Below the pieces are notes generated by a model. That model was not told the origin of the DNA, ran no database searches, and was given only the letters and a program-made list of their open reading frames with translations. Below are positions 4,166-42,012 of a stretch of DNA of 42,986 bases, in pieces (position 1 is the first letter of the stretch; each line of letters starts with the position of its first letter). Made by a program: the position numbers and the translations under genes. Source of the DNA: Dehalococcoidia bacterium (lineage in GTDB: Bacteria > Chloroflexota > Dehalococcoidia > UBA2247 > RBG-13-53-26); assembly GCA_016932645.1 (NCBI GenBank), contig JAFGCL010000033.1, positions 1 through 42,986 of the forward strand. The letters run 5' to 3'.

Positions 4166-5101
4166 CTAACCTTCGGGCGGCAGAAATTCGTCCCAGGTCT
4201 CCCTGTCTCTCCTGGCAGACACCAACCGCAGCAGGATCACAGCACCAACCAAGCCTATCAGTCCGACTATCAACCACAGCCACCAGCGGGATGACTGTTC
4301 CGCAAACCTAGCCGTCACCGTCAGTGGTACATCAACATAAACGGTGACTGACTTCTTCGAGCCGGACAAGTCTCCTTCCCAGTAATCAAACCGGTAGCCC
4401 TTCGCGGCCTTGGCAGTGATGGTCACTTCCTTGCCCACGGCATAGCCGTTGGATGATTCCGGTTCCAGGACGACCGAGCCTCCTATGGTCGGGCTGCAAT
4501 AGACGGCGACGGTGGGGTTAAAAATGGCTACAATCGACCTGTTATCGTTGACGAGAACGGTCCTGGGGTTGTCAGTGCCGGCCAGATCACCCGTCCAGTG
4601 GCTGAAAACGTAGCCCGTCCCAGCCTTGGCGTACACAGATACGTTGTCATTGACGAGATAGCCGCCCGGGGGATGGGCTTCCGAGAACTCTATCGAGCCC
4701 CCACCGCTGGGTTCAATAGCAGCAGCCAAGGAGTAGCGAAGGTCAGACTGCACGAAGTTGGCAGTGATATGGCGATTGTTGTCGGGGTCATCTCCCATTG
4801 CGAAGGTTACCATGGTCTGGCTGGGGTCGGCGATCACATCTACTTCCCCAGTCCAGCCAACAAACACATAGCCGGTCACCGGCGTGGCGGTCAGAGTGAT
4901 GAGCGCAGTGGCGAGATACCTCGTGGCCACTGGAGAGACTGTGACTGTCCCGCCAGCCTCTGGAGTACTGACGACCGTCAGTACTTCGCACGCTCAGGCT
5001 GCGTGCGTTCTGGGTGGGATTGCCACCGGAGCCACCAAGGCGGTGGCTGCCAATAGGATCGCCAGCAGCCAGAAGGGCCGAACAGCAAGCCTGTGCCTCA
5101 C
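4166..5101 (-). CDS. Exported, C-terminally membrane-anchored protein with three InlB-B-like repeats, interrupted by one in-frame TGA (4996-4994). Candidate selenoprotein or pseudogene.
   Basis: GTG 5101 opens a signal peptide (MRHRLAVRPFWLLAILLAATALVAPVAIPP..HAA). The same frame continues past the TGA into repeats with the G[YF]xFxxW[TE]G motif and a WWL-TM-RL anchor. The ORF track reports only 4166..4930, which begins mid-repeat. Confidence 0.6.
4964..4985 (-). other. SECIS-like mRNA hairpin downstream of the in-frame UGA
   Basis: mRNA AGUACUGAC-GGUC-GUCAGUACU forms a perfect 9-bp stem with a GGUC tetraloop. The stem starts 8 nt after the UGA. Confidence 0.45.
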
Positions 5102-5139: not shown

Positions 5140-7050
5140 TTAATCTACAGGATATCTCCCGCGTTGAACCACCAAGACCCAGAACAAACGGATGAGGATC
5201 AAGGCGATGATCACCAACACGAGTATGAGTGGTATCAGCCACCAGGAGAACCCTCCCTTGGGTACGCCCACCGCAAACATGGTGCCTGCCAAGTCACTGG
5301 GGGCCGGTTTGCTCTTCAGAGTCAACTTCGCCCAGACGAAGTCGCCATCTTTGTCAACACCCGTCTTGGAACACTTCTTCCACCTTTGTCCGTCCCACCA
5401 GAACAGTCGCAGCGACCCCTCTTTCACCACTGCCACTTCTTCGGCAGTGTAGTACACTACTATCTCGACTTCGTCAATCGCCACGGTGCTGGAGAAAAGA
5501 ACGTCGATCCACCTTCCCTCTTCGTCATCAATATCTTTCTGACCCAGGGTCTTGTATCGAAACTCGCCCACCGGATTCTCAGCGAACTCAGCCACAGAGG
5601 CAAACGCCCTGCCGATCCCCTCTTTCGTCACAACGGTGGAGGTCTCGTTGCGGCTATTGAGGATGAAAGGCCCCGCTTGGGCGGCGACTGTCTTGACGCG
5701 CATCGGCTGCTTCGCCAGCCAAGGGTCAAACAGAATCGTATCTCCCACAGCGGGTCCTTGACCACCGGTATTGGATACATGCGACGGGCCCGTGTCCGTG
5801 CCCCACCAGTTTTCAATGGCACTGACCTTCTCAGTGCTCTGGCTGTACACCTGGGAACCGGCTGCCACAGCAGGATCGGTTCCGGGATCAACCGTTATCG
5901 TGTTGAAGCGAAGCTGATTGCCTGATGCAGTCGAGCTTAGGAAGACGGCAGAGCCTTCGGTCGCACTGTTGCCATGAAGCTTGTTCCCGCTCAGATAGTT
6001 CTCCGATCCATCGATGTACATGCCGATCACATTGTACTTGCACTCGTTCTCCAGAAGGATGTTGCTCGTGCTGTCTTCCGAGACATAGATGCCGTAGTTG
6101 TTGTCGAGGATTACGTTCCCGGAGATTACACAGCCACTGGCGTCCTCGAGCCGTACACCAGCCCCGCCGGTGTCAACGGCCCCCTCGATAGTGAACCCTG
6201 AGAGTGTCACGCAACCGGCCGTTATCTTGAACACATCTTCTGTGGCATATGGCGTCAGAAACGCCCGTACAATCGTCTTGTCAGGCCCTGCCACCGCCTT
6301 GATAGTCACGCTCTTGGCCACGGTCACGTTTTCGTCATACGTGCCCTCGTGTACCGATATCCTCCATCCATCAAACACCGAGTCAACGGCTTCCTGTATC
6401 GTCCCGTAGTCATAGCCTTCGCCTTTGCCAACGCTTGCTTCGCGGACAATGTAGGCGCGGATCAGGAAGTCTCCGGCTGGTCGCTTCATCCCCTCACTGA
6501 CCAGTCCATAGGGAGTCTTCCCATTCCACGACTCACCCGTCCTTTGATGGTCATGGAACACAGTAACTTTGAGACTATCCGCCGCCTCCACAAAGATCCA
6601 GAACTTTGTCGGGACCACAAGATCTCCGACCGGAATCTCATACCATTTCTCTGCCGTGACCTCACAGAGTATCTTTGGTATCAAGAGTTCGTTTGGTGCA
6701 AAACCGCCGGCCTTCGTGTCCATGATGTGGACTACCACCGTACCTTTGCCCCCGCCGGCATAGAAACGAACTTTACTCAGGATTGATGAGGCCACTCCCT
6801 GGGGGAGGGAGAAGAGCACCCCTTGAAAAGTCTGGCATTGCTGGCAACCCGATAGTTGGTGCGTCCACATCTGTCCATACGGGTCGCCATCATCGTACGC
6901 GAGTTCCCCGGTATCGCCAGTCCCCGAACAATCCACAATCTCTGCCACAGCCTGATGTGAATCGAGCAGCAACGGCGCAAGTGAGGATATTATCAGGAGC
7001 ATCGTCAGGACAGAAATGACGGTAGTCTTCAGCATCCTGCTCGACAACAT
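5140..7050 (-). CDS. Surface protein with a right-handed parallel beta-helix (NosD/pectin-lyase-like) domain, a signal peptide and a C-terminal TM anchor
   Basis: 636 aa. It has an N-terminal hydrophobic signal, TIQEAVDSV..G..ISVHEGTYDENVTV plus repeated GN.I..N..GIY beta-helix turns, and a C-terminal SWWLIPLILVLVIIALILIRL anchor. Confidence 0.8.
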   Translation of the reverse strand: MLSSRMLKTTVISVLTMLLIISSLAPLLLDSHQAVAEIVDCSGTGDTGELAYDDGDPYGQMWTHQLSGCQQCQTFQGVLFSLPQGVASSILSKVRFYAGGGKGTVVVHIMDTKAGGFAPNELLIPKILCEVTAEKWYEIPVGDLVVPTKFWIFVEAADSLKVTVFHDHQRTGESWNGKTPYGLVSEGMKRPAGDFLIRAYIVREASVGKGEGYDYGTIQEAVDSVFDGWRISVHEGTYDENVTVAKSVTIKAVAGPDKTIVRAFLTPYATEDVFKITAGCVTLSGFTIEGAVDTGGAGVRLEDASGCVISGNVILDNNYGIYVSEDSTSNILLENECKYNVIGMYIDGSENYLSGNKLHGNSATEGSAVFLSSTASGNQLRFNTITVDPGTDPAVAAGSQVYSQSTEKVSAIENWWGTDTGPSHVSNTGGQGPAVGDTILFDPWLAKQPMRVKTVAAQAGPFILNSRNETSTVVTKEGIGRAFASVAEFAENPVGEFRYKTLGQKDIDDEEGRWIDVLFSSTVAIDEVEIVVYYTAEEVAVVKEGSLRLFWWDGQRWKKCSKTGVDKDGDFVWAKLTLKSKPAPSDLAGTMFAVGVPKGGFSWWLIPLILVLVIIALILIRLFWVLVVQRGRYPVD

Positions 7051-7297: not shown

Positions 7298-7326
7298 TAT
7301 TCCCCCATCGCAGAGGGGGGTCACTC
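7298..7326. repeat. Partial REP-like G/C hairpin (TATTCCCCC-loop-GGGGGG) at the 3' end of the OST gene
   Basis: TATTCCCCCatcgcagaGGGGGGtcactc shares its 5' arm and architecture with the elements at 25419 and 30496. It overlaps the OST stop codon. Confidence 0.4.
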
Positions 7327-9177
7327 CAATGCCAGGATAACTACGGGGGGTTTTTCGATATCGCTAGCGGGGTATACCCGTCTCAGACCGCCACCGAACT
7401 CGGTTTGGCCACCTAAACTCCGGGCGTACAGCGAGTCCCTTAGCTCAGGAGGGATACTGATTTGATCACCGTAAGCCTTCTCAAGAGCCTCCCAACTTAT
7501 CACCGGTAGGATCTTGATCTCGATGTCTGAGAAGATAAGGTAGTGCGCCCCGTACTTCTGCATGATCTCAACTGCCTCAGCGTCGTCTGTCGCGCAGTAG
7601 ACGCGGGCGACATCCCTGTCGGTGCTTGCCCAATGCACGCCATTATCCACCACAGGTACCCGGTGTCCCAGGTCAAGTATCCAGTATCCGTAGTCCCACC
7701 AGCTCATTACCTTGATATCGCTGTCCTCTGGAGTATTCTCTCGCAACCATGTCAAGGCTTCTTCCCATTCAGGAGTGACGGCCATTATCCTGGAGAACGA
7801 CCCCACGTGCCGGGATGTCAATGCCGAACCAAGGATGGTGCCAGCTATCAGGAGTACCGCAAGCATCGCTCTCAGATACCTGAGAACACTGCGCGAGTCA
7901 GCGATCCCGGCTGCCACCTCTCTCAGCGAGAAGCGGCGAGCACCTCCTAGGTCAAGCATAGCTCCCAACCCGATGCCACACAAAACGCAGAAAGCAGGAG
8001 CGGCAAAGTTGAAAAGCCTTCGGGCGAACAAACCACCGGCAAAAAGTACCACACACCAGCTCAGCCACAAGACGTCCGGTGGCCGCCGTCTTCTGATCGT
8101 GACATATATGCCCACCAGGAGAGGCACCAACAGAAACTGCCACGTGACGATGTCGCTGGGGCCAATCCCCCGCAGCTCCCCGATGTACTGGGCCCCCTCA
8201 GCGGGGTGGAAGGCTTCGAGCCAGGCGTTGTATATCGCTTCGTACCCCGGCTGGAAGATGCCGACCACGGCACTGACAGCCAGAGCTAACACGAGAGGCC
8301 TATAGCTCGACTTTTCGATGGATGGTATCATGCCCTTAGCGCCTTGTTTCACCAGTGCAATCGGCAGGTTCAGAGGGTCGGTCTCGGCGTTGAAGGCGGA
8401 CACCAACCGTGTCCACAAGCTGGCCAATATCTCACCAACCACATAAGCCATTAAGATAGCCAATAGGATCAGAGATCCCAAGAAGCCCCATTCGACATAC
8501 AGCAACGCCTCAAACAACAGCACGGACGCCCCACGTACTACCCAGCCGAGGTCCAGTCCGCTCCTTTTCAGGTGGAGATCCTTCATGAGATAGAAGGCGC
8601 AAACCCCCATGATTACCAGCAGCCAACTGAGGCCATCACGGTCAATATAGCCCGCAGCGCCGAAGAACACGGTCAGAACAGCAGCAGCAAAAGCAAATGC
8701 CGACAGGTGAGCAACGACGCGCCCGTACATCTTCGAAACCACTAGCCAAAGAACAATGATGGTAACCACTGCTATGATCGGCGGGAGTACCTTGGCCACA
8801 AATGCCACGGCATCTTGGGATGCCACTCCGCTCACGAAAGCAATCACCCTGGCCAGTAGACCCACAGGGTATGCCAATCCACTGTGCATCCAGTACGGGA
8901 GAACCACATTAAACTGGGTTGGGTACTGGAACTTGTCACCCGAGGCCACCAAGTCGGCCATAAAATGGAAAAAGTAGGAGTCAGTACTGATGATGTAGTA
9001 GTGGTCCGTCTCCAGAAGATGCAGGCAGCGATAGGCGAAGGCCAGTCCGCATATTAGGGCCAGCAGAACCCAATGAAACCACCGACGGGAAGTGCATGCC
9101 AGGAACGCCGACCAGAAGCCGGATGCGGTCCCGGTGGACCCTTCCGTTCTCTGCCCCTTCTCAGTTTGGTCAGTCAT
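7321..9177 (-). CDS. STT3/AglB/PglB-family oligosaccharyltransferase (GT-C fold, N-glycosylation)
   Basis: 618 aa. It has a polytopic N-terminal membrane domain, then ALTWLRENTPEDSDIKVMSWWDYGYWILDLGHRVPVVDNG, which carries the hallmark WWDYG motif. Confidence 0.8.
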   Translation of the reverse strand: MTDQTEKGQRTEGSTGTASGFWSAFLACTSRRWFHWVLLALICGLAFAYRCLHLLETDHYYIISTDSYFFHFMADLVASGDKFQYPTQFNVVLPYWMHSGLAYPVGLLARVIAFVSGVASQDAVAFVAKVLPPIIAVVTIIVLWLVVSKMYGRVVAHLSAFAFAAAVLTVFFGAAGYIDRDGLSWLLVIMGVCAFYLMKDLHLKRSGLDLGWVVRGASVLLFEALLYVEWGFLGSLILLAILMAYVVGEILASLWTRLVSAFNAETDPLNLPIALVKQGAKGMIPSIEKSSYRPLVLALAVSAVVGIFQPGYEAIYNAWLEAFHPAEGAQYIGELRGIGPSDIVTWQFLLVPLLVGIYVTIRRRRPPDVLWLSWCVVLFAGGLFARRLFNFAAPAFCVLCGIGLGAMLDLGGARRFSLREVAAGIADSRSVLRYLRAMLAVLLIAGTILGSALTSRHVGSFSRIMAVTPEWEEALTWLRENTPEDSDIKVMSWWDYGYWILDLGHRVPVVDNGVHWASTDRDVARVYCATDDAEAVEIMQKYGAHYLIFSDIEIKILPVISWEALEKAYGDQISIPPELRDSLYARSLGGQTEFGGGLRRVYPASDIEKPPVVILALE

Positions 9178-9407: not shown

Positions 9408-9698
9408 ATGACCATGAAACCCGGCTGTGGCTGCTTCCTGCTGCTTCTCGCTATCGCCAACCTTGTGCTTCTGATCTCTTCGATAGCCGCCGCTGTCAAA
9501 GGCAATCTGACGGTGCTCACGGGTATTGCCATGACAGTGCTTTTTGCTGCAAATGTTGCCGCTGCTGGAATGCTCGGGTTGGCTGCAATGCGAGGTGTGT
9601 CGTTCGGTCGGAAGTCTGCGGCGCAGGATGCGGATGAGTCAGCCGTGGATGAGTCGACGTCCGTTACCGAAGAGGGCACAGACGACAGTGCGGACTAG
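9408..9698 (+). CDS. Small membrane protein (2 TM) with an acidic C-terminal tail
   Basis: AAGGAGG lies 6 nt before ATG 9408. Sequence: MTMKPGCGCFLLLLAIANLVLLISS..., two hydrophobic helices, then a D/E/S-rich tail. Confidence 0.55.
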   Translation: MTMKPGCGCFLLLLAIANLVLLISSIAAAVKGNLTVLTGIAMTVLFAANVAAAGMLGLAAMRGVSFGRKSAAQDADESAVDESTSVTEEGTDDSAD

Positions 9699-9876: not shown

Positions 9877-9905
9877 TTGACAACGCTCCCAACCTGTGGT
9901 ATTAC
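9877..9905 (+). promoter_or_regulatory. Candidate extended -10 promoter giving a leader of about 220 nt for the first small paralog
   Basis: TTGACA (9877-9882), 17-nt spacer ending in TGg, TATTAC (9900-9905). Confidence 0.4.
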
Positions 9906-10131
9906 TATGACTGCTTCCAAGCAGCAGAGTTGGAACCGAGTAGCAGAGTTTATCGCGCAGTAGATGTGGTGGACACATCTATAGCGATGAAGAGTCTTCG
10001 GTAGGATGAAAGGAGGTGTGGCCTAGGAACGACTGCGAGACAGGTTCAGTCGGTTCAGAGTTCAGTCACAAGTGTACGCGAGTTTTGAACTAAGATAACG
10101 GCGCAAAGTAAGAAAGGGGGGTGACTAACAA

Positions 10132-10389
10132 ATGACACCATTTATCTCGACAATTATTGCCAGAGTACTTGCAATCACTGACTACTTCTTGGCGCAGTGG
10201 GTAGACGTAGCTGCAGTTTCCAACGCTTCACCGAATGGCTGCTGGGAATTCGACGTTCAGAACGCCACCCTTAATGCCTGCGGCCAGGAATTCATCGCAA
10301 ACCTGACCGATGTCGTCGAGGGCGTCATTGCTCTCGTCCCGAGCCTTCTGGGCGGCCTTTTCGCATTCGGCACTCCCGAAGCCGTGTAG
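10132..10389 (+). CDS. Small sequon-rich protein, paralog 1 (unknown family)
   Basis: Strong SD GAAAGGGGGGTGA before the ATG. 85 aa with an N-terminal amphipathic helix ending in AQWV, then NAS, NAT and NLT sequons. A terminator follows. Confidence 0.65.
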   Translation: MTPFISTIIARVLAITDYFLAQWVDVAAVSNASPNGCWEFDVQNATLNACGQEFIANLTDVVEGVIALVPSLLGGLFAFGTPEAV

Positions 10390-10466
10390 TAGTAGTAGTA
10401 ACGGTCCGAGGAGAAGCCCCGTTAGGCAGGTGCCCGATTTCATCCTACTAGGGGACTCAGAATTCT

Positions 10467-10503
10467 AGAAGGGGAGCTTTACGAAGCTCCCCTTCTCATT
10501 TTG
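10467..10503 (+). terminator. Intrinsic terminator after paralog 1
   Basis: GAAGGGGAGCTT-tacg-AAGCTCCCCTTC forms a 12-bp stem, followed by TCATTTT. Confidence 0.85.
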
Positions 10504-11608
10504 GCGGGCCCCGCATTTCCTGGCTTCATGCAGTGAATGTTCACACAACGGCATATCCCCTAGAGGAGAAGCGTTATCCGTCTTACGTTCCGTCATTGCC
10601 TCGATTCTCCGTGTCTTGACCAGCAAGAAGCTACTCGACCACGCGGACCCTGATGGATGAGGGCATCATCCCAACCTCCAGCGTCCATGCCGCTGCTCTG
10701 CGTAAACGGGAGGTCTAAAGTCAAACATCTGTTGCTGGTCGGCAAATGCCATACCGGTATAGTAGACTCGCGGGGGTCGGACCCAAAATAGTGGCAGGGG
10801 TTCCACAACTCCCGCGGCTGCAGAGAAGCAGCGGCATGTCGCACGTCCCGGCTGGAGTTCTCCTCGACAAGCCTCCATTAGAGCAACATGAATAGAATGC
10901 TGCTATGAGTCGCTCCGTCGGTCGGCAGAACCGAGCGCACTTCCGGCTCTGCAGCGCGCCAAACCGGACTATCCCCGAAATCCTCATACAGGGGCGCCTA
11001 TCAGCATGGACCAATGCCATCGGTCACGCACACCTCATCGAGTGGCTCCACATGCTTGCAGGGCAACACACTCCATGACTGACAGTCCAAAGAACCAACG
11101 TTCTCGCGCATATCTTAGAGGCAATGCAGGCAAAGCCCGAGTCACCTGTAGAAGGGACGAGTGGCACTGAGATAATCGACAATATCATAGATCGCTGACA
11201 AATAGGCTTGACTATGAGGGTCAGGCATGTTAGATTGCGAAGTGAATTCAACATCAACCCAGAGAGGTAGAGCCTAAAGAGTCAGATGCAGCACTGTCTT
11301 GGGGAGACCCGTGGAGGTTGCAGAGAACCCACGGATTTGGTCTGTTCGGGTGACCAAAAGTCTCTTCAAGGCCAAGAGGGAGCACAGGCATCCGGCCGGA
11401 TGTCGCCAAGAGCAGAACTGCCGACCCGCGTGCAGAGGAGAGAGCGGGAAGGGCAGTGGAACCATGATTGGACACCACGTCCTTTCTCTGACCGAAGCCT
11501 TAACTGTTTTCTAAGCATTCTGTAATGGAGGCTTAAGGTTGCCTTGGTAGACTGGAGGAGCTTGGTAGAGGGGCCACCGCCGACAGCGGAGAATGCTTGA
11601 GGTAGATG

Positions 11609-11842
11609 ATGGACAACTTTGGGGTCGTTGTCGCACGTATCGTAGCTGAACTGACAATGCTAACTGAGGCCACATTGGCCAAGTGGGTCAACATCACCTC
11701 GGTTGATGGCAACATAACCAACATCACATTGACACCACTTGGTAACTCCTTCGCCGATGCGTGGAGTAAGTTCATCGTATCGTACGCTTGGGCAATGGAT
11801 CAGATGCTGCGCACCCTCTGGGGTACCACCTCTGGAGGATAA
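11609..11842 (+). CDS. Small sequon-rich protein, paralog 2
   Basis: GAGG lies 6 nt before the second ATG. Sequence MDNFGVVVARIVAELTMLTEATLAKWVNITSVDGNITNITL aligns with paralogs 1 and 3 and carries three NIT sequons. Confidence 0.6.
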   Translation: MDNFGVVVARIVAELTMLTEATLAKWVNITSVDGNITNITLTPLGNSFADAWSKFIVSYAWAMDQMLRTLWGTTSGG

Positions 11843-11862
11843 GTCAGGGAAAGGCAGACCCG

Positions 11863-12087
11863 GTGACCATATACGACGCAATAGTCAGCATGATGGCAGA
11901 AGCCTTAGCGTTGGGCAACGCAGTGCTGGCACATTGGGTCAGCATGCCGGAAAACGCCACTGGCCCACTCGATCCCAACATTACTCTCACAGAGACCGGT
12001 ACTGACCTGGTGCAGTACTTGCAGTCGTCGGCTGTACAAGCAGGCGACATCGTTTGTGTGGTATTGGATGCCCTCTTCTCACTGTAG
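11863..12087 (+). CDS. Small sequon-rich protein, paralog 3 (start moved to the GTG that aligns with paralog 2)
   Basis: GGGAAAGG lies upstream of GTG 11863. Sequence VTIYDAIVSMMAEALALGNAVLAHWVSMPENATGPLDPNITLTETG aligns residue-for-residue with paralog 2. Confidence 0.55.
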   Translation: MTIYDAIVSMMAEALALGNAVLAHWVSMPENATGPLDPNITLTETGTDLVQYLQSSAVQAGDIVCVVLDALFSL

Positions 12088-12179: not shown

Positions 12180-12899
12180 ATGAGGACCATGCGAGATCAT
12201 CTGATGGCAAAGCATGAAGAAAAGAGAACCCTTGGATCCAGAAGATGCGTTGCCCTTCTTCTGGTCGTTCTCCTTGTCATCTCCACGACCCTGCTGGTTG
12301 CCCCGACAAGAGCAGTGGCGGAACCTGCCACTATCACCCTCAATGGATGGGGCTGGTGCGTTGCCTACAGGGAGATTGGGAACGTTAGTCTGGTTCTTGA
12401 TGGGAGTACCATACCAAGAGAAAGCACAGACAACGTACAGGATCTGTATCTGACGGGTACACTGACGTTTAACCTCGATGATAGGACCGACGAGTTCGAG
12501 TTGGAGTTGAGAGGAACCAGGATAAGATCTCTTTTCTTCCTGAAGCAGGTGTCAGGTGGGGACATCCCGCTCATAGCCGAGTTCGAAGGAACATGGTTGA
12601 GCGAGACAGACTATGTAGCCTGCGAGGGGCGCATAGCGGTAACCGCCCCTAACCACGTAGCCAAGCCGTACTTCTTTGTACTCCGTACGGAAGATGCCGA
12701 GATGCCTTCACGGTTGACCGGCGACTGGGTGGCAAACGTGGATTTCATGGTTGGGAAGCTGACATCAGCTTTTGACTCCATAGCGGATAGGCTCGCAACC
12801 GGGGGATTGGTGATTAAGGACAACCTGGGCGACTTGCTTACCAACATAGCCGTCATTGTCAGGGAAGTGAGAAACTTGGGAATACCCTATTTTGCCTGA
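12180..12899 (+). CDS. Secreted hypothetical protein
   Basis: 239 aa with signal peptide RRCVALLLVVLLVISTTLLVAPTRAVA-EP. No recognisable domain. The start may instead be ATG 12204. Confidence 0.6.
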   Translation: MRTMRDHLMAKHEEKRTLGSRRCVALLLVVLLVISTTLLVAPTRAVAEPATITLNGWGWCVAYREIGNVSLVLDGSTIPRESTDNVQDLYLTGTLTFNLDDRTDEFELELRGTRIRSLFFLKQVSGGDIPLIAEFEGTWLSETDYVACEGRIAVTAPNHVAKPYFFVLRTEDAEMPSRLTGDWVANVDFMVGKLTSAFDSIADRLATGGLVIKDNLGDLLTNIAVIVREVRNLGIPYFA

Positions 12900-12942: not shown

Positions 12943-14097
12943 ATGATGGAAATGATAATCGTCACGATAGCCATTATCGTGCTGCCTATAGCCCTGTTCT
13001 TCGGCATCGTGGGTTTGGCCATCTTCATCTGGTGTTGGAACCGCATTGGCCGCTACTTCATAAACTTCGGCAGATGGCTGGGGAGTTGGCGCAATTTCAT
13101 CCCCTTGTCCATCCTCGGAGTCCTGTCTTTCATATTGATCTTGGTCGTCTTGCCTATTATCGGGCTCTCAAGGACGGTTCTTGCCGTTCTACTTGTTCTG
13201 TTCTTGTTGGCGACCATCGTCATCTTCATGTTTGCCATTGTCGCATGGATCATTAGATTCTGCCAGTGGTTCTGGCCTCCATACAGGAGATTGGTTTGGA
13301 GTGCAATCTCTTCGATGTGGGGATCCTTGCCACAGAGAAGCGGCAAGAGTAGGAGAAGAGCCCCCAAGCCGTCAGCCGGGCCACCGTCTTCGAGGCAGCC
13401 CATAACCGGTACGCAGAAGCCTTCCGAACGCTCCTGGCTGGCTTCATTCTGGGCCTTGATGCTAGGCAAGACTCCAGCGCCCGCGAAGTCAGGTGCAGCA
13501 ACAAAGCCAGGTACCGCCAACATCCAGCCCCCTCCTGGGGAGGCTGCCCCGACCAAGCGCTCATGGTTTGGCTCATTCTGGGCATTGATGATGGGAAAGC
13601 CTCAGCCAACGAGACGCCAGGCTAGACCGACGAGCGTTCAGACAACCGAACAGACTCTCGGCCCATCAGGAACCTTGGCCACAGCCCGCGGACCCGAATC
13701 CGGCGCTTTCGCAGCTCCGCCGACGAAGAAGGTGAAGCCCTCCAGGCACTCATGGTTTGGCTCATTCTGGGCGTTGATGCTGGGAAGCCCCTCGAAGTCC
13801 ACCAAGCCAAAGCCTAGACCTGCAAAGACCCCGACAACCGACCAGACATCCGTCACTCCGGACAACGCAGCAGCAACAGCCAATACCGGAGCCACCACTA
13901 CTGTCGCCGAGACCGCAACCGGTTCCGAATCCGTCAAAGCGGAGCCTGCGAAGCAGGGGACTTTCGGACGGATTTGGACCAGCGTGATTCGCGGAGTGAC
14001 CGTTGCGGCAGGACTGGTTATCCTCGGAGTGCTATGGGTAGGACGCAAGATTGGTGAGGGCATCGAATGGATCCGCATACGGCTCAATCTCGACTAA
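12943..14097 (+). CDS. Polytopic membrane protein with a P/T/A/K-rich linker carrying three SW[FL]xSFWALM[LM]G repeats and a C-terminal TM helix
   Basis: 384 aa with SD AGAGGTGA upstream. It has 3-4 N-terminal TM helices. The repeats lie at about 13429, 13558 and 13747, and the last two DNA copies are nearly identical. Confidence 0.7.
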   Translation: MMEMIIVTIAIIVLPIALFFGIVGLAIFIWCWNRIGRYFINFGRWLGSWRNFIPLSILGVLSFILILVVLPIIGLSRTVLAVLLVLFLLATIVIFMFAIVAWIIRFCQWFWPPYRRLVWSAISSMWGSLPQRSGKSRRRAPKPSAGPPSSRQPITGTQKPSERSWLASFWALMLGKTPAPAKSGAATKPGTANIQPPPGEAAPTKRSWFGSFWALMMGKPQPTRRQARPTSVQTTEQTLGPSGTLATARGPESGAFAAPPTKKVKPSRHSWFGSFWALMLGSPSKSTKPKPRPAKTPTTDQTSVTPDNAAATANTGATTTVAETATGSESVKAEPAKQGTFGRIWTSVIRGVTVAAGLVILGVLWVGRKIGEGIEWIRIRLNLD

Positions 14098-26854: not shown

Positions 26855-27379
26855 ATGAAGCACGCCCCAGACCTCCATCACCGCCACTCCATACGCCTGA
26901 AGGACTACGACTACGCCCAGCCGGGCGCATATTTCGTTACGGTGTGCACGCGGGATCGGGAATGTCTTCTTGGCGAGATCGCCGATGGGGAGTTGCGATT
27001 GAACCCCTTTGGTGTTGCTGTCCGTGACGAATGGTTGAGGACGGCGGAATTGCGTGAGCGTGTTGATTTGGATGTGTTCGTGGTCATGCCCAATCATTTG
27101 CACGGTATCGTCATGATCACCCAGGGTAGGGGCGTATGGCCATACGCCCCTACGGAGACATTGCGTTCGCCGTCACACACCGTCGGAGCCATCGTTCGTG
27201 GTTTCAAATCCGCATCCGCCAAACGCATCAATGAGATGCGCAATACTCCACGCATGCCTGTCTGGCAGCGGAACTACTACGAACACGTCATTAGGAACGA
27301 AGCCGAACTGAACGCCATCCGCCAGCATATCCATGGGAATCAGGCCACTTGGTCTTCGGATGAGAACTGCCACGTCTAG
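26855..27379 (+). CDS. REP-associated tyrosine transposase-like (IS200/IS605 Y1 HUH superfamily, RAYT)
   Basis: 174 aa with HRHSIRLKDYDYAQPGAYFVTVCT, the HUH motif VVMPNHLHGIV, and the catalytic Tyr region QRNYYEHVIRNE. Confidence 0.8.
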   Translation: MKHAPDLHHRHSIRLKDYDYAQPGAYFVTVCTRDRECLLGEIADGELRLNPFGVAVRDEWLRTAELRERVDLDVFVVMPNHLHGIVMITQGRGVWPYAPTETLRSPSHTVGAIVRGFKSASAKRINEMRNTPRMPVWQRNYYEHVIRNEAELNAIRQHIHGNQATWSSDENCHV

Positions 27380-40833: not shown

Positions 40834-42012
40834 ATGCACCATAGACCAGACACCCCTCAGGAGCCATCCCACCCGCCAACCCCGGTCTCTCCACTCCAAC
40901 CGAACCGTGTTGGCGCCCGGCTCAGTGACCTGGCAAACGCCTTCCTCCACATACAGATGCTCTGGGTGACTATGGCCGCAGCCCTTGTCTACCTCTCGTA
41001 CATTCTGAACCTCAGCCCGGTGCTTCGCTGGATAGGCCTGGCGCTGGCCTTCCTGCCCTTCCCTTTGCGGCTGGCACGCAGCGGCATCGGGTCTCTCCGA
41101 ACACCCTTTGACCTCCCAATCGTCCTGCTCCTGACGGGTGCCGTAGTTGGCTTCTGTGTCTCTGACAATCGCACCATCAGCCTCGGTGCACTCCAGTGCA
41201 CGGTTGCCGTCACGCTCTTCTACTATTCATGGGTCAACTCTTCACGCTTGGCCAACCTCATCAAATGGGTCATCATTTCGTTCGCATTGGTCTTCATCCC
41301 GGTTTTTGTCTTCTCCATACTTGATGTGTCGCTTATCAACAGGCAACTTGACTTCACTATACGTGGCTCAGGCACGCATCATGGCCTCGCCATGTATCTT
41401 GCCATCGAGGTGGCCATCCTTCTCGGAATGGCTGCCTTTGACAGAAGCAAGAGGACCAAAGTGGTCGCCATCGCCCTCTGTCTCCTGTTCCTAGTGATAA
41501 TTGTGGTGATGACTTGGGATTCCCTTAACAGTCTCGTCCATGGCGTGAGCGTCACTGGCAGATGTCCAATATGGGAGAAGACCGCTTCGCTCTTAGCGGA
41601 CTCTCCTCTCACCGGTCTCGGACTCGGCTGCTGGGCGCTGGCACGATGGGGAACCACCGTCTTGGGCACCGATGAGATCGGTGGGATTACGCACACTCAC
41701 AACGCGTACCTCGAGCTCTACTCCAACACCGGAATACTCGGGGCACTGGCCCTCCTGGTCGCCCTCGGGATAGGCCTGATACTTTCCCTGGACATCATCA
41801 GATCTCCACGTACTCACCCCTGGTATGGATTCGGCGTCGGCGTGATCCTTGCCTGCGTAGCCACGCTCCTGGTCGCCGGAGTGGAAAGCGCCCCCATGGG
41901 GGTGCCACTGGTGGCAACCGACACCTACTATTATGTCGTCTCTCCGATTGCCTGGATGCTCTGCGGACTTCTGTTTATGTCCCATCGACTCATAACCAAG
42001 AGCCCTGGGTAG
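40834..42012 (+). CDS. O-antigen ligase / Wzy_C-domain polytopic membrane protein
   Basis: 392 aa with many TM helices and the motif THTHNAYLELYSNTGILGALALL, typical of O-antigen-ligase-like proteins. The start is uncertain (Pro-rich N-terminus). Confidence 0.7.
   Translation: MHHRPDTPQEPSHPPTPVSPLQPNRVGARLSDLANAFLHIQMLWVTMAAALVYLSYILNLSPVLRWIGLALAFLPFPLRLARSGIGSLRTPFDLPIVLLLTGAVVGFCVSDNRTISLGALQCTVAVTLFYYSWVNSSRLANLIKWVIISFALVFIPVFVFSILDVSLINRQLDFTIRGSGTHHGLAMYLAIEVAILLGMAAFDRSKRTKVVAIALCLLFLVIIVVMTWDSLNSLVHGVSVTGRCPIWEKTASLLADSPLTGLGLGCWALARWGTTVLGTDEIGGITHTHNAYLELYSNTGILGALALLVALGIGLILSLDIIRSPRTHPWYGFGVGVILACVATLLVAGVESAPMGVPLVATDTYYYVVSPIAWMLCGLLFMSHRLITKSPG

Follow-up and report, generated by a model that had tools for sequence, protein, structure and literature searches.

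Three small sequon-dense proteins encoded beside an STT3/AglB-type oligosaccharyltransferase in a Dehalococcoidia bacterium: a new family of candidate N-glycosylation acceptors

Three small genes, here called A, B and C, lie next to a gene for an STT3/AglB-type oligosaccharyltransferase (OST) in a 42,986-nucleotide stretch of DNA from a Dehalococcoidia bacterium (phylum Chloroflexota; assembly GCA_016932645.1, contig JAFGCL010000033.1, positions 1 to 42,986 of the forward strand; hereafter the window), and their products are distant paralogs with a loop rich in the N-glycosylation motif N-x-S/T (sequon). The reading that we favour, at a probability of roughly 45%, is that A, B and C are abundant extracytoplasmic N-glycoproteins modified by the neighbouring OST, with glycans carried on an exposed hairpin cap. 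The three proteins are the best candidates for the substrates of this OST because the loop of their family is packed with conserved N-glycosylation motifs. An initial annotation of the window had offered dedicated glycosylation substrates, envelope accessory proteins and precursors of a modified peptide as possible identities for the trio, and the substrate or envelope option is now the best supported, because the paralogs are conserved, the loop sequons are enriched and the link to the OST recurs across relatives. To our knowledge, what is established about N-linked glycosylation by STT3-type enzymes in bacteria comes essentially from Campylobacterota and some Desulfobacterota, where the sequon is an extended one; the present AglB/STT3-like enzyme belongs to a probable Chloroflexota bacterium and is clustered with three very sequon-dense small proteins. 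An OST with its acceptor proteins is a system already known, and the family to which A, B and C belong is itself undescribed.

All three open reading frames (ORFs) were found at the positions and sizes first proposed for them (74-85 aa). The frames of A and B open at the first possible start after a stop codon, and the sole possible extension of C, from a TTG at 11788, runs into B; the orthologs of C start at MTIYD. No hidden signal peptide is possible in A, B or C, because their starts cannot be moved upstream, and the earlier statement that they have no classical signal peptide therefore stands: none is present in the three proteins, and upstream there is no room for one. Residue numbers of B refer to the 77-aa form from 11609, in which the invariant N35 is the N36 of the 78-aa form from 11606. 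Databases hold 37 homologs of A, 28 of B and 23 of C, all metagenomic "hypothetical proteins" of equal length, and comparison with three orthologous loci gave dN/dS ratios of 0.26-0.36 for A, 0.11-0.22 for B and 0.08-0.25 for C. Purifying selection acts on A, B and C, which are real genes, and the conservation on which the initial annotation had made its proposal depend is present, both as homologs and as dN/dS values that span 0.08-0.36 over the three genes. Their paralogy, also proposed at that stage, is weak in BLASTP, where A matches B (E 4e-5) and C (E 0.023) and where B against C gave no match, but it is backed by profile-profile comparison, as hhalign of the three subfamily profiles returned pairwise E-values of 6e-5, 6e-6 and 4e-7 over the helix-1/loop region; the three proteins are thus distant paralogs. 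The [QKH]-W-V motif that had been described as closing the first helix is present in A, B and C. A six-frame search of the window with a hidden Markov model found three copies of the family only, with no extra copy or pseudogene in the 1.2-kb gap between A and B. At the end of A (10387-10401) the stop codon TAG is followed in frame by three more TAG and a TAA (TAG TAG TAG TAG TAA); several orthologs of A have a double TAG at the stop and others do not.

The eight sequons announced for the trio are present, as NAS31, NAT44 and NLT57 in A, NIT28, NIT35 and NIT38 in B, and NAT31 and NIT39 in C. That they exceed what composition would predict was borne out by shuffling, which gave means of 0.58, 0.92 and 0.42 against the 3, 3 and 2 sequons observed in A, B and C, and by comparison with 25 other window proteins, predicted surface proteins among them, which carry 0-0.93 sequons per 100 aa; at 3.5 (A), 3.9 (B) and 2.7 (C) per 100 aa, the trio has 3-10 times the density of every other window protein. 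The further claim that the sequons align between the paralogs held for two positions, and in each subfamily one site is invariant or nearly so, but the remaining sites vary among homologs. The fixed sites are N44 of the A subfamily, found as Q-N-[AV]-[TS] in 37/37 close homologs, the invariant Asn of D-G-N-x-T in the B subfamily, and the invariant P-x-N31-A-[TS] of the C subfamily, the most conserved part of which is the loop P-x-N-A-T/S-G-P-L-D-P-N-I/V-T.

To delimit the wider family, 1.84 billion representative proteins were searched with a profile built from the three subfamilies; this yielded 101 clusters (50% identity) at E <= 1e-3, 96 of them proteins of 48-110 aa, and nearly the whole family falls within 70-106 aa. 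Among 96 representatives of the family (<=50% identity), S or T stands at +2 of Asn in 28% of cases, compared with 14.7% at other offsets (p 3e-12, although this and the following p-value overstate independence because the sequences are related, a caution that belongs with the objections gathered below). Pro occurs at x in 0/115 family sequons, and Thr is preferred to Ser by 80:35. Sequon density is 4.2 per 100 aa in the hairpin/loop, where 41% of Asn residues sit in sequons, 1.5 in the C-terminal tail and 0.4 in the helices. After deletion of the conserved Asn column, S/T at +2 still reaches 32% in the loop vs 15.6% (p 5e-8), and helix 2 shows no such enrichment once that column is removed. 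In Cys-less members of the B and C type, 72% of loop Asn residues lie in sequons; the extra sequons of A-type members are scattered across 15 alignment columns and therefore point to turnover of sites, and A-type C-terminal tails are likewise enriched (44% vs 10.6%). Long-form members gain sequons of the kinds GN[AT]TGG, VNLTP and ANWTP together with Pro/Ser/Thr-rich tails (PPSPPTPP). Across A-C and the family, the sequons have the form N-x-S/T with Pro excluded and lie in the predicted hairpin/loop and tails, regions expected to be exposed or flexible. The "PglB-style" D-x-N-x-T noted earlier exists as single sites in B (DGNIT) and C (DPNIT), but it does not characterise the family, in which an acidic residue stands at -2 in only 9/115 sequons. 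A PglB-type (Campylobacter-like) acceptor, D/E-x-N-x-S/T, was rejected on this count and because the OST is nearer to STT3/AglB than to PglB.

The consensus of the family reads M-P-x-[LI]-x-x-I-I-A-[KR]-x-L-A-L-x-[DE]-x-x-L-x-x-[WF]-V-x-V ... C ... N-[AV]-[TS]-[LV]-[TN]-x-C-G-x-x-[LF]-V and continues into a second amphipathic helix; conservation is highest at the N-terminus, and the C-terminal half varies. The impression that no known family was involved proved correct in the libraries searched: Pfam, NCBIfam and PHROGs gave no match to A, B or C, Pfam none to 107 members of the family, and a profile search of PDB sequences returned noise only. A phage or virion origin was ruled out by the lack of relatives in IMG/VR (searched with two profiles) and of any PHROGs match. 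The family is new to these libraries and has a confidently predicted fold: with the 107-sequence alignment, AlphaFold modelled A at a pLDDT of 86.6 as a helix (residues 4-20), two strands (24-29 and 42-47) and a second helix (49-76), so that the monomer prediction suggested at the outset gave a confident helix, beta-hairpin/loop, helix arrangement; a shallow alignment of A alone gave a pLDDT of 56 and was unusable. Foldseek against the PDB gave no match better than E 0.6 among the matches listed. Two Cys residues occur together in 81 members and are both missing in 22, with one alone in 4; their spacing is C-x11-13-C, the second preceding G, and this co-occurrence and spacing is the pattern expected for a disulfide. 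The only named genome that contains the family is a metagenome-assembled genome of Chloroflexota. Genes of the A type are found in other places too, singly or in pairs; at L001 (161-1378; related loci are cited by handles of this form), for instance, a pair surrounds a cold-shock-domain gene, with no OST nearby. At L001, L038, L039, L042, L043 and L048, A-type pairs lie ~0.5-0.7 kb apart, one member long, with a Pro-rich tail, and the other short. Protein P0099 (572 aa) consists of tandem repeats that match the family profile ten times; the repeat contains GNVTLNQAGTDL, an N-x-T-L-x3-G-T-D-L motif as in the C loop.

The OST appears, by its sequence motifs, to be intact. Its best relatives in the PDB are STT3A and the C-terminal domains of AglB, with WWDYGYW aligned and the DRD of GYIDRDG opposite the DNE of STT3A, and PglB was absent among its PDB matches. 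The protein also contains TDSYFF, IDRDG and IGELRG, which probably represent the first EL1 Asp, the DxD motif and the EL5 Glu, respectively. The distance of about 1 kb between this gene and the trio, as first reported, is 955 nt from its start codon to that of A, the two being divergently oriented. In collinear relatives with enough flanking sequence, whose OSTs are ~60-77% identical, the same gene order recurs: the OST on the minus strand, a small membrane protein (TM116), A, B, C, a 239-aa protein (sec239), a 384-aa membrane protein (TM384) and a polyprenyl synthase. In a distant lineage, with an OST that is 42% identical, the order is rearranged, yet the OST, the TM protein, a Flg_new_2 surface protein and the trio are found together; the link to the OST therefore holds across relatives and outlasts rearrangement. 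In collinear loci TM116 separates the OST from the first family gene, and where the order is rearranged it remains adjacent to the OST; the sole family match of TM116, to a holin-like Pfam entry, is sub-threshold (E 0.031) and is not counted as evidence. Two loci are exceptions to the gene order, L012, described below, and L023, in which the 3 kb upstream of A contain no OST. The window itself is bacterial, with genes for RecA, RecX, PcrA/UvrD, CinA and Wood-Ljungdahl-type MTHFR/MetV.

An extracytoplasmic location of A, B and C is indirectly suggested by the Cys pair, the sequons, the Pro/Thr tails and the composition of the proteins, which are very acidic and poor in Lys and Arg, together with two natural fusions. 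In one of these, P0096 (L054, 227-1483), a continuous ORF joins a signal peptide, a beta-helix and an A-like domain, but a Shine-Dalgarno sequence and an ATG are retained at the junction and the protein is known from a single 1.6-kb contig. In the other, P0090 (L058, 53-373), 28 residues, MITGFLPVILVHAC-DPPPTPPPDPVTTS, genuinely precede the domain; this N-terminal extension has a Shine-Dalgarno sequence of its own and no internal Met, is hydrophobic, Cys-containing and Pro/Thr-rich and resembles a lipoprotein-type anchor.

Several further observations weigh against the proposal that the trio is glycosylated outside the cytoplasm. None of the three proteins carries a Sec, Tat or lipoprotein signal. 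Both helices show a heptad-like amphipathic pattern, in which position 11 is kept as K/R and position 17 as D/E, and no positive charges flank them; on these two grounds the helices were rejected as convincing transmembrane segments. Since a Sec/Tat signal is absent and the helices look amphipathic, not membrane-spanning, the proposal requires export by a non-classical route. Sequons are missing altogether from 31/96 representatives, and of the 53 that keep the conserved Asn, 32 have T/S at +2. Many A-type genes have no OST within 5-8 kb. At L012 the A-like gene of the OST cluster has no N-x-S/T and a transposase replaces the OST side. The predicted surface proteins of the cluster, the trio apart, are not sequon-enriched, and the window ORFs of >=150 aa that were scanned include no glycan-assembly genes adjacent to the OST. 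The transposase at L012 (207-2109) is of the DDE type, and two N-x-C motifs (NVC and NAC) occur in the A-like gene beside it.

The alternative that survives best, which we consider rather unlikely all the same, takes up several of these objections and proposes that A, B and C carry no glycans and serve, in the cytoplasm or elsewhere, as small structural proteins that self-assemble or lie at the membrane periphery; N-x-T would then be a structural element of the beta-hairpin, with Asn and Thr on one strand face, and nearness to the OST would reflect a shared "envelope" neighbourhood only. The lack of an export signal, the amphipathic helices with their heptad patterns and the many members far from any OST are all consistent with such proteins; however, the synteny with the OST that outlasts rearrangement speaks against a mere shared neighbourhood, and the coupled Cys pair and the Pro/Thr-rich tails would be unusual in cytoplasmic proteins. 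The sequons themselves can be argued both ways, as the family keeps N-[AV]-[TSEA]-[LV]-[TN]-x-C-G with a non-sequon residue at +2 and one third of it lacks a sequon, but the S/T enrichment at +2 outlasts deletion of the conserved column, is restricted to loop and tail and extends over many columns, and Pro is never found at x in 115 sequons.

It is improbable that A, B and C are instead accessory or regulatory partners of the OST, comparable to the small non-catalytic subunits of the eukaryotic enzyme. The tight and conserved linkage of the trio with the OST and the small TM protein, and their small size, could be explained in this way, but A, B and C are not membrane-spanning by sequence, paralogs of the A type are found singly or in pairs at a distance from any OST, expression signals as strong as those of the trio are more in keeping with a structural protein than with a stoichiometric subunit of an enzyme, and the sequon density would be left unexplained. 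Still less probable is that they are precursors of ribosomally synthesised and post-translationally modified peptides (RiPPs) or bacteriocins, such as a glycocin-like helix-loop-helix with a glycosylated loop and the N-terminal helix as leader. Small tandem paralogs, an N-terminus that is the most conserved part beside a variable C-terminal half, and a Cys pair that brackets the loop would suit such precursors; against them stand the confident globular fold predicted over the full length, purifying selection along the entire ORF, the lack of a double-glycine or other cleavage motif, the synteny of the locus with housekeeping genes, and the lack of a modifying enzyme, peptidase-ABC exporter or immunity gene in at least five contexts (the window and the loci inspected, L001-L058). 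The modified-peptide option of the initial annotation is therefore not supported, given a confident fold and no modification or export genes in the contexts seen. A gas-vesicle-like or other intracellular proteinaceous shell is the least probable of all, since the predicted alpha-beta-beta-alpha topology in GvpA-like order, the small, acidic proteins with a grand average of hydropathicity (GRAVY) of 0.4-0.8, the several paralogs per cluster and a 13-residue local match at the helix-strand junction (xWVxV) are outweighed by an hhalign probability of 1.8% against GvpA (query verified as PDB 8gbs), no match to Pfam Gas_vesicle (PF00741) in 107 members, the absence of 8gbs and 7r1c, both in the PDB set, from the 50 Foldseek matches listed, the lack of gvpN, gvpF/L or any other gvp gene among the ORFs of >=150 aa scanned in the 43-kb window, and a long loop with Cys and sequons unlike the tight hairpin of GvpA; homology to GvpA was rejected on the hhalign and Pfam results.

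Taken together, these data allow a model in which A, B and C are substrates of the neighbouring OST. Each protein would consist of two amphipathic helices packed as a hairpin and topped by a beta-hairpin/loop "cap", and the single-subunit STT3/AglB-type OST next door would attach N-glycans to the N-x-S/T sites of this cap and of the C-terminal tails. A, B and C would be envelope or surface proteins exported by a non-classical route; A may be produced from its own strong monocistronic unit, and B and C from a second unit that probably runs on into the 239-aa secreted and 384-aa membrane proteins. Both the actual glycosylation of the trio and its high abundance are inferred. A more elaborate version, which we regard as unlikely, is that an uncultured Chloroflexota-like lineage carries out archaeal/eukaryote-type N-glycosylation with a short sequon, that the main clients are dedicated tiny, signal-less helix-hairpin-helix proteins which are exported non-classically and form a glycoprotein coat, and that in the B and C subfamilies dense N-glycans replace the stabilising role of an ancestral disulfide.

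The expression signals of A and of B-C (Table 1) would fit abundant structural proteins. The promoter predicted for A is near-consensus, is the only such match in the window and implies a leader of ~220 nt, in which the conserved element GAAAGGAGGTG may resemble an mRNA stabiliser of the STAB-SD type, a concept described elsewhere (PMC4113751). The 10-nt Shine-Dalgarno sequence of A is conserved across the family, and by its predicted promoter and terminator A is monocistronic. The leader before B is as conserved as coding sequence (77%) among the window, L003, L021 and L024, and has an AT-rich block with ~11-nt periodic TAAnCATTnTG-like repeats ~70-110 nt before the start. An Rfam search of the gaps gave no match for this leader, the only return being a sub-threshold one to COG3860 (E 0.28), and covariation was uninformative, with four close sequences only. 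Between the terminator of A and the promoter-like site of B lie ~700 bp (10504-11200) with no conserved ORF, no family remnant and little conservation relative to the orthologous locus; family genes on other contigs likewise follow long intergenic regions (300-1100 nt).

Table 1. Genes and predicted expression signals discussed in the text, with positions in the window.
Feature	Positions	Strand	Description
Gene A	10132..10389	+	ATG start; 85 aa; acidic, hydrophobic; two-Cys (A-type) subfamily, Cys37 and Cys50
Gene B	11609..11842	+	77 aa; Cys-less paralog; ORF opens at 11606, orthologs use the second ATG at 11609
Gene C	11863..12087	+	74 aa; Cys-less branch; GTG start 21 nt past the stop of B
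STT3/AglB-type oligosaccharyltransferase	7321..9177	-	618 aa; WWDYG; Pfam AglB_core-like 1.4e-10, TIGR04154 2e-26
Small membrane protein TM116	9408..9698	+	N-terminus MxxKPGCGC, two hydrophobic segments, acidic tail
239-aa protein (sec239)	12180..12899	+	Classical signal peptide; follows C in collinear loci with that flank; no family match
384-aa membrane protein (TM384)	12943..14097	+	Three amphipathic RSWFGSFWALMLGKP-type repeats; in conserved cluster
Surface beta-helix (NosD-like) protein	5140..7050	-	Signal peptide, C-terminal anchor; in conserved cluster
Flg_new_2 repeat surface protein	4166..4930	-	Homolog also adjoins the OST in the rearranged distant locus L009
Predicted promoter of A	9877..9905	+	TTGACA, 17-nt spacer, TATTAC, upstream TG; kept in 9 related loci
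Shine-Dalgarno-like GAAAGGAGGTG in leader of A	10008..10018	+	Conserved in orthologs
Extended Shine-Dalgarno GAAAGGGGGGTGA of A	10112..10124	+	Core AAGGGGGGT retained even in distant A-type genes
Predicted intrinsic terminator after A	10467..10503	+	Perfect 13-bp stem, tetraloop, CAUUUU; dG -26.9 kcal/mol, z -5.4; kept in L003
Promoter-like site for B-C	11208..11236	+	TTGACT, 17-nt spacer, TAGATT, TG; kept in L021 and L024
Conserved non-coding leader before B	11243..11605	+	~365 nt, ~77% identical to L003; block TAAnnnnTTTCTAAGCATTCTGTAATG...TTAAGGTTGCCTTGGTAGACT strongly conserved

In the 384-aa protein the RSWFGSFWALMLGKP-type repeats are divided by Pro/Ser/Thr-rich spacers, and the protein has no family match. 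Elsewhere in the window, a Wzy_C (O-antigen ligase-like) membrane protein at 40834-42012 is the only other glycan-related gene among the scanned ORFs of >=150 aa, and a fragment of an IS200-like Y1 transposase lies at 26855-27379. Literature searches on OSTs in Chloroflexi/Chloroflexota and on glycosylation in Dehalococcoidia found nothing relevant.

Whatever its function, the family described here is new; it comprises ~100 clusters at 50% identity, and its fold is predicted with confidence. If A, B and C are acceptors of the OST, a compact natural module (~75 aa, with 2-3 sites per loop) would be at hand for studies and engineering of short-sequon bacterial glycosylation, the trio would point to a so far unrecognised part of the envelope in the abundant Chloroflexota of sediments and wetlands, and the question would arise of how signal-less proteins are delivered to an extracytoplasmic OST. 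Should the version with a glycoprotein coat be correct, it would establish a new kind of building block of the bacterial envelope and extend functional STT3-type pathways to one more bacterial lineage.

Comparison with known systems places the trio in context. GvpA, GvpJ and GvpM (PDB 8gbs, 7r1c) share with A, B and C a size of ~70-85 aa, a hydrophobic and acidic composition, the order helix-strand-strand-helix (predicted for the trio) and the occurrence of several paralogs, but they show no sequence or profile similarity to the trio, which has no accessory gvp genes and has a long loop with a Cys pair and sequons. Glycocins such as sublancin and glycocin F are helix-loop-helix bacteriocins with a glycosylated inter-helix loop and disulfides; they are S- or O-glycosylated in the cytoplasm by a GT2 enzyme and have cleavable leaders, two nested C-x6-C disulfides and exporter and immunity genes. 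The small two-helix hairpin of the A-type family, its Cys residues and the putative glycosylation sites in its loop recall them, whereas leader, nested disulfides and exporter or immunity genes are all lacking at the A/B/C loci inspected. The WXG100/Esx proteins of type VII secretion systems (T7SS) are helical hairpins of ~100 aa that lack a signal peptide and are specified by neighbouring paralogous genes in monoderm bacteria. A, B and C resemble them as signal-less adjacent paralogs with a conserved Trp at the end of helix 1, but their motif is W-V-x, not W-x-G, and a beta-hairpin takes the place of the tight turn; membership of WXG100 was rejected, as A, B and C gave no Pfam match at E <= 0.1 and no FtsK-like T7SS ATPase domain was found in the 37 window proteins scanned. 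The closest counterparts may be the acceptors of single-subunit N-OSTs, namely the S-layer proteins, pilins and archaellins modified by AglB and the substrates of PglB. A, B and C, as candidate acceptors, differ from these in having neither a signal peptide nor a class III (prepilin) signal, in being only 74-85 aa long and in belonging to a family unrelated to known substrates; they share with them Pro-excluded, Thr-preferring sequons in exposed loops and tails, and their genes stand beside a seemingly intact STT3/AglB-type OST, among those of surface proteins.

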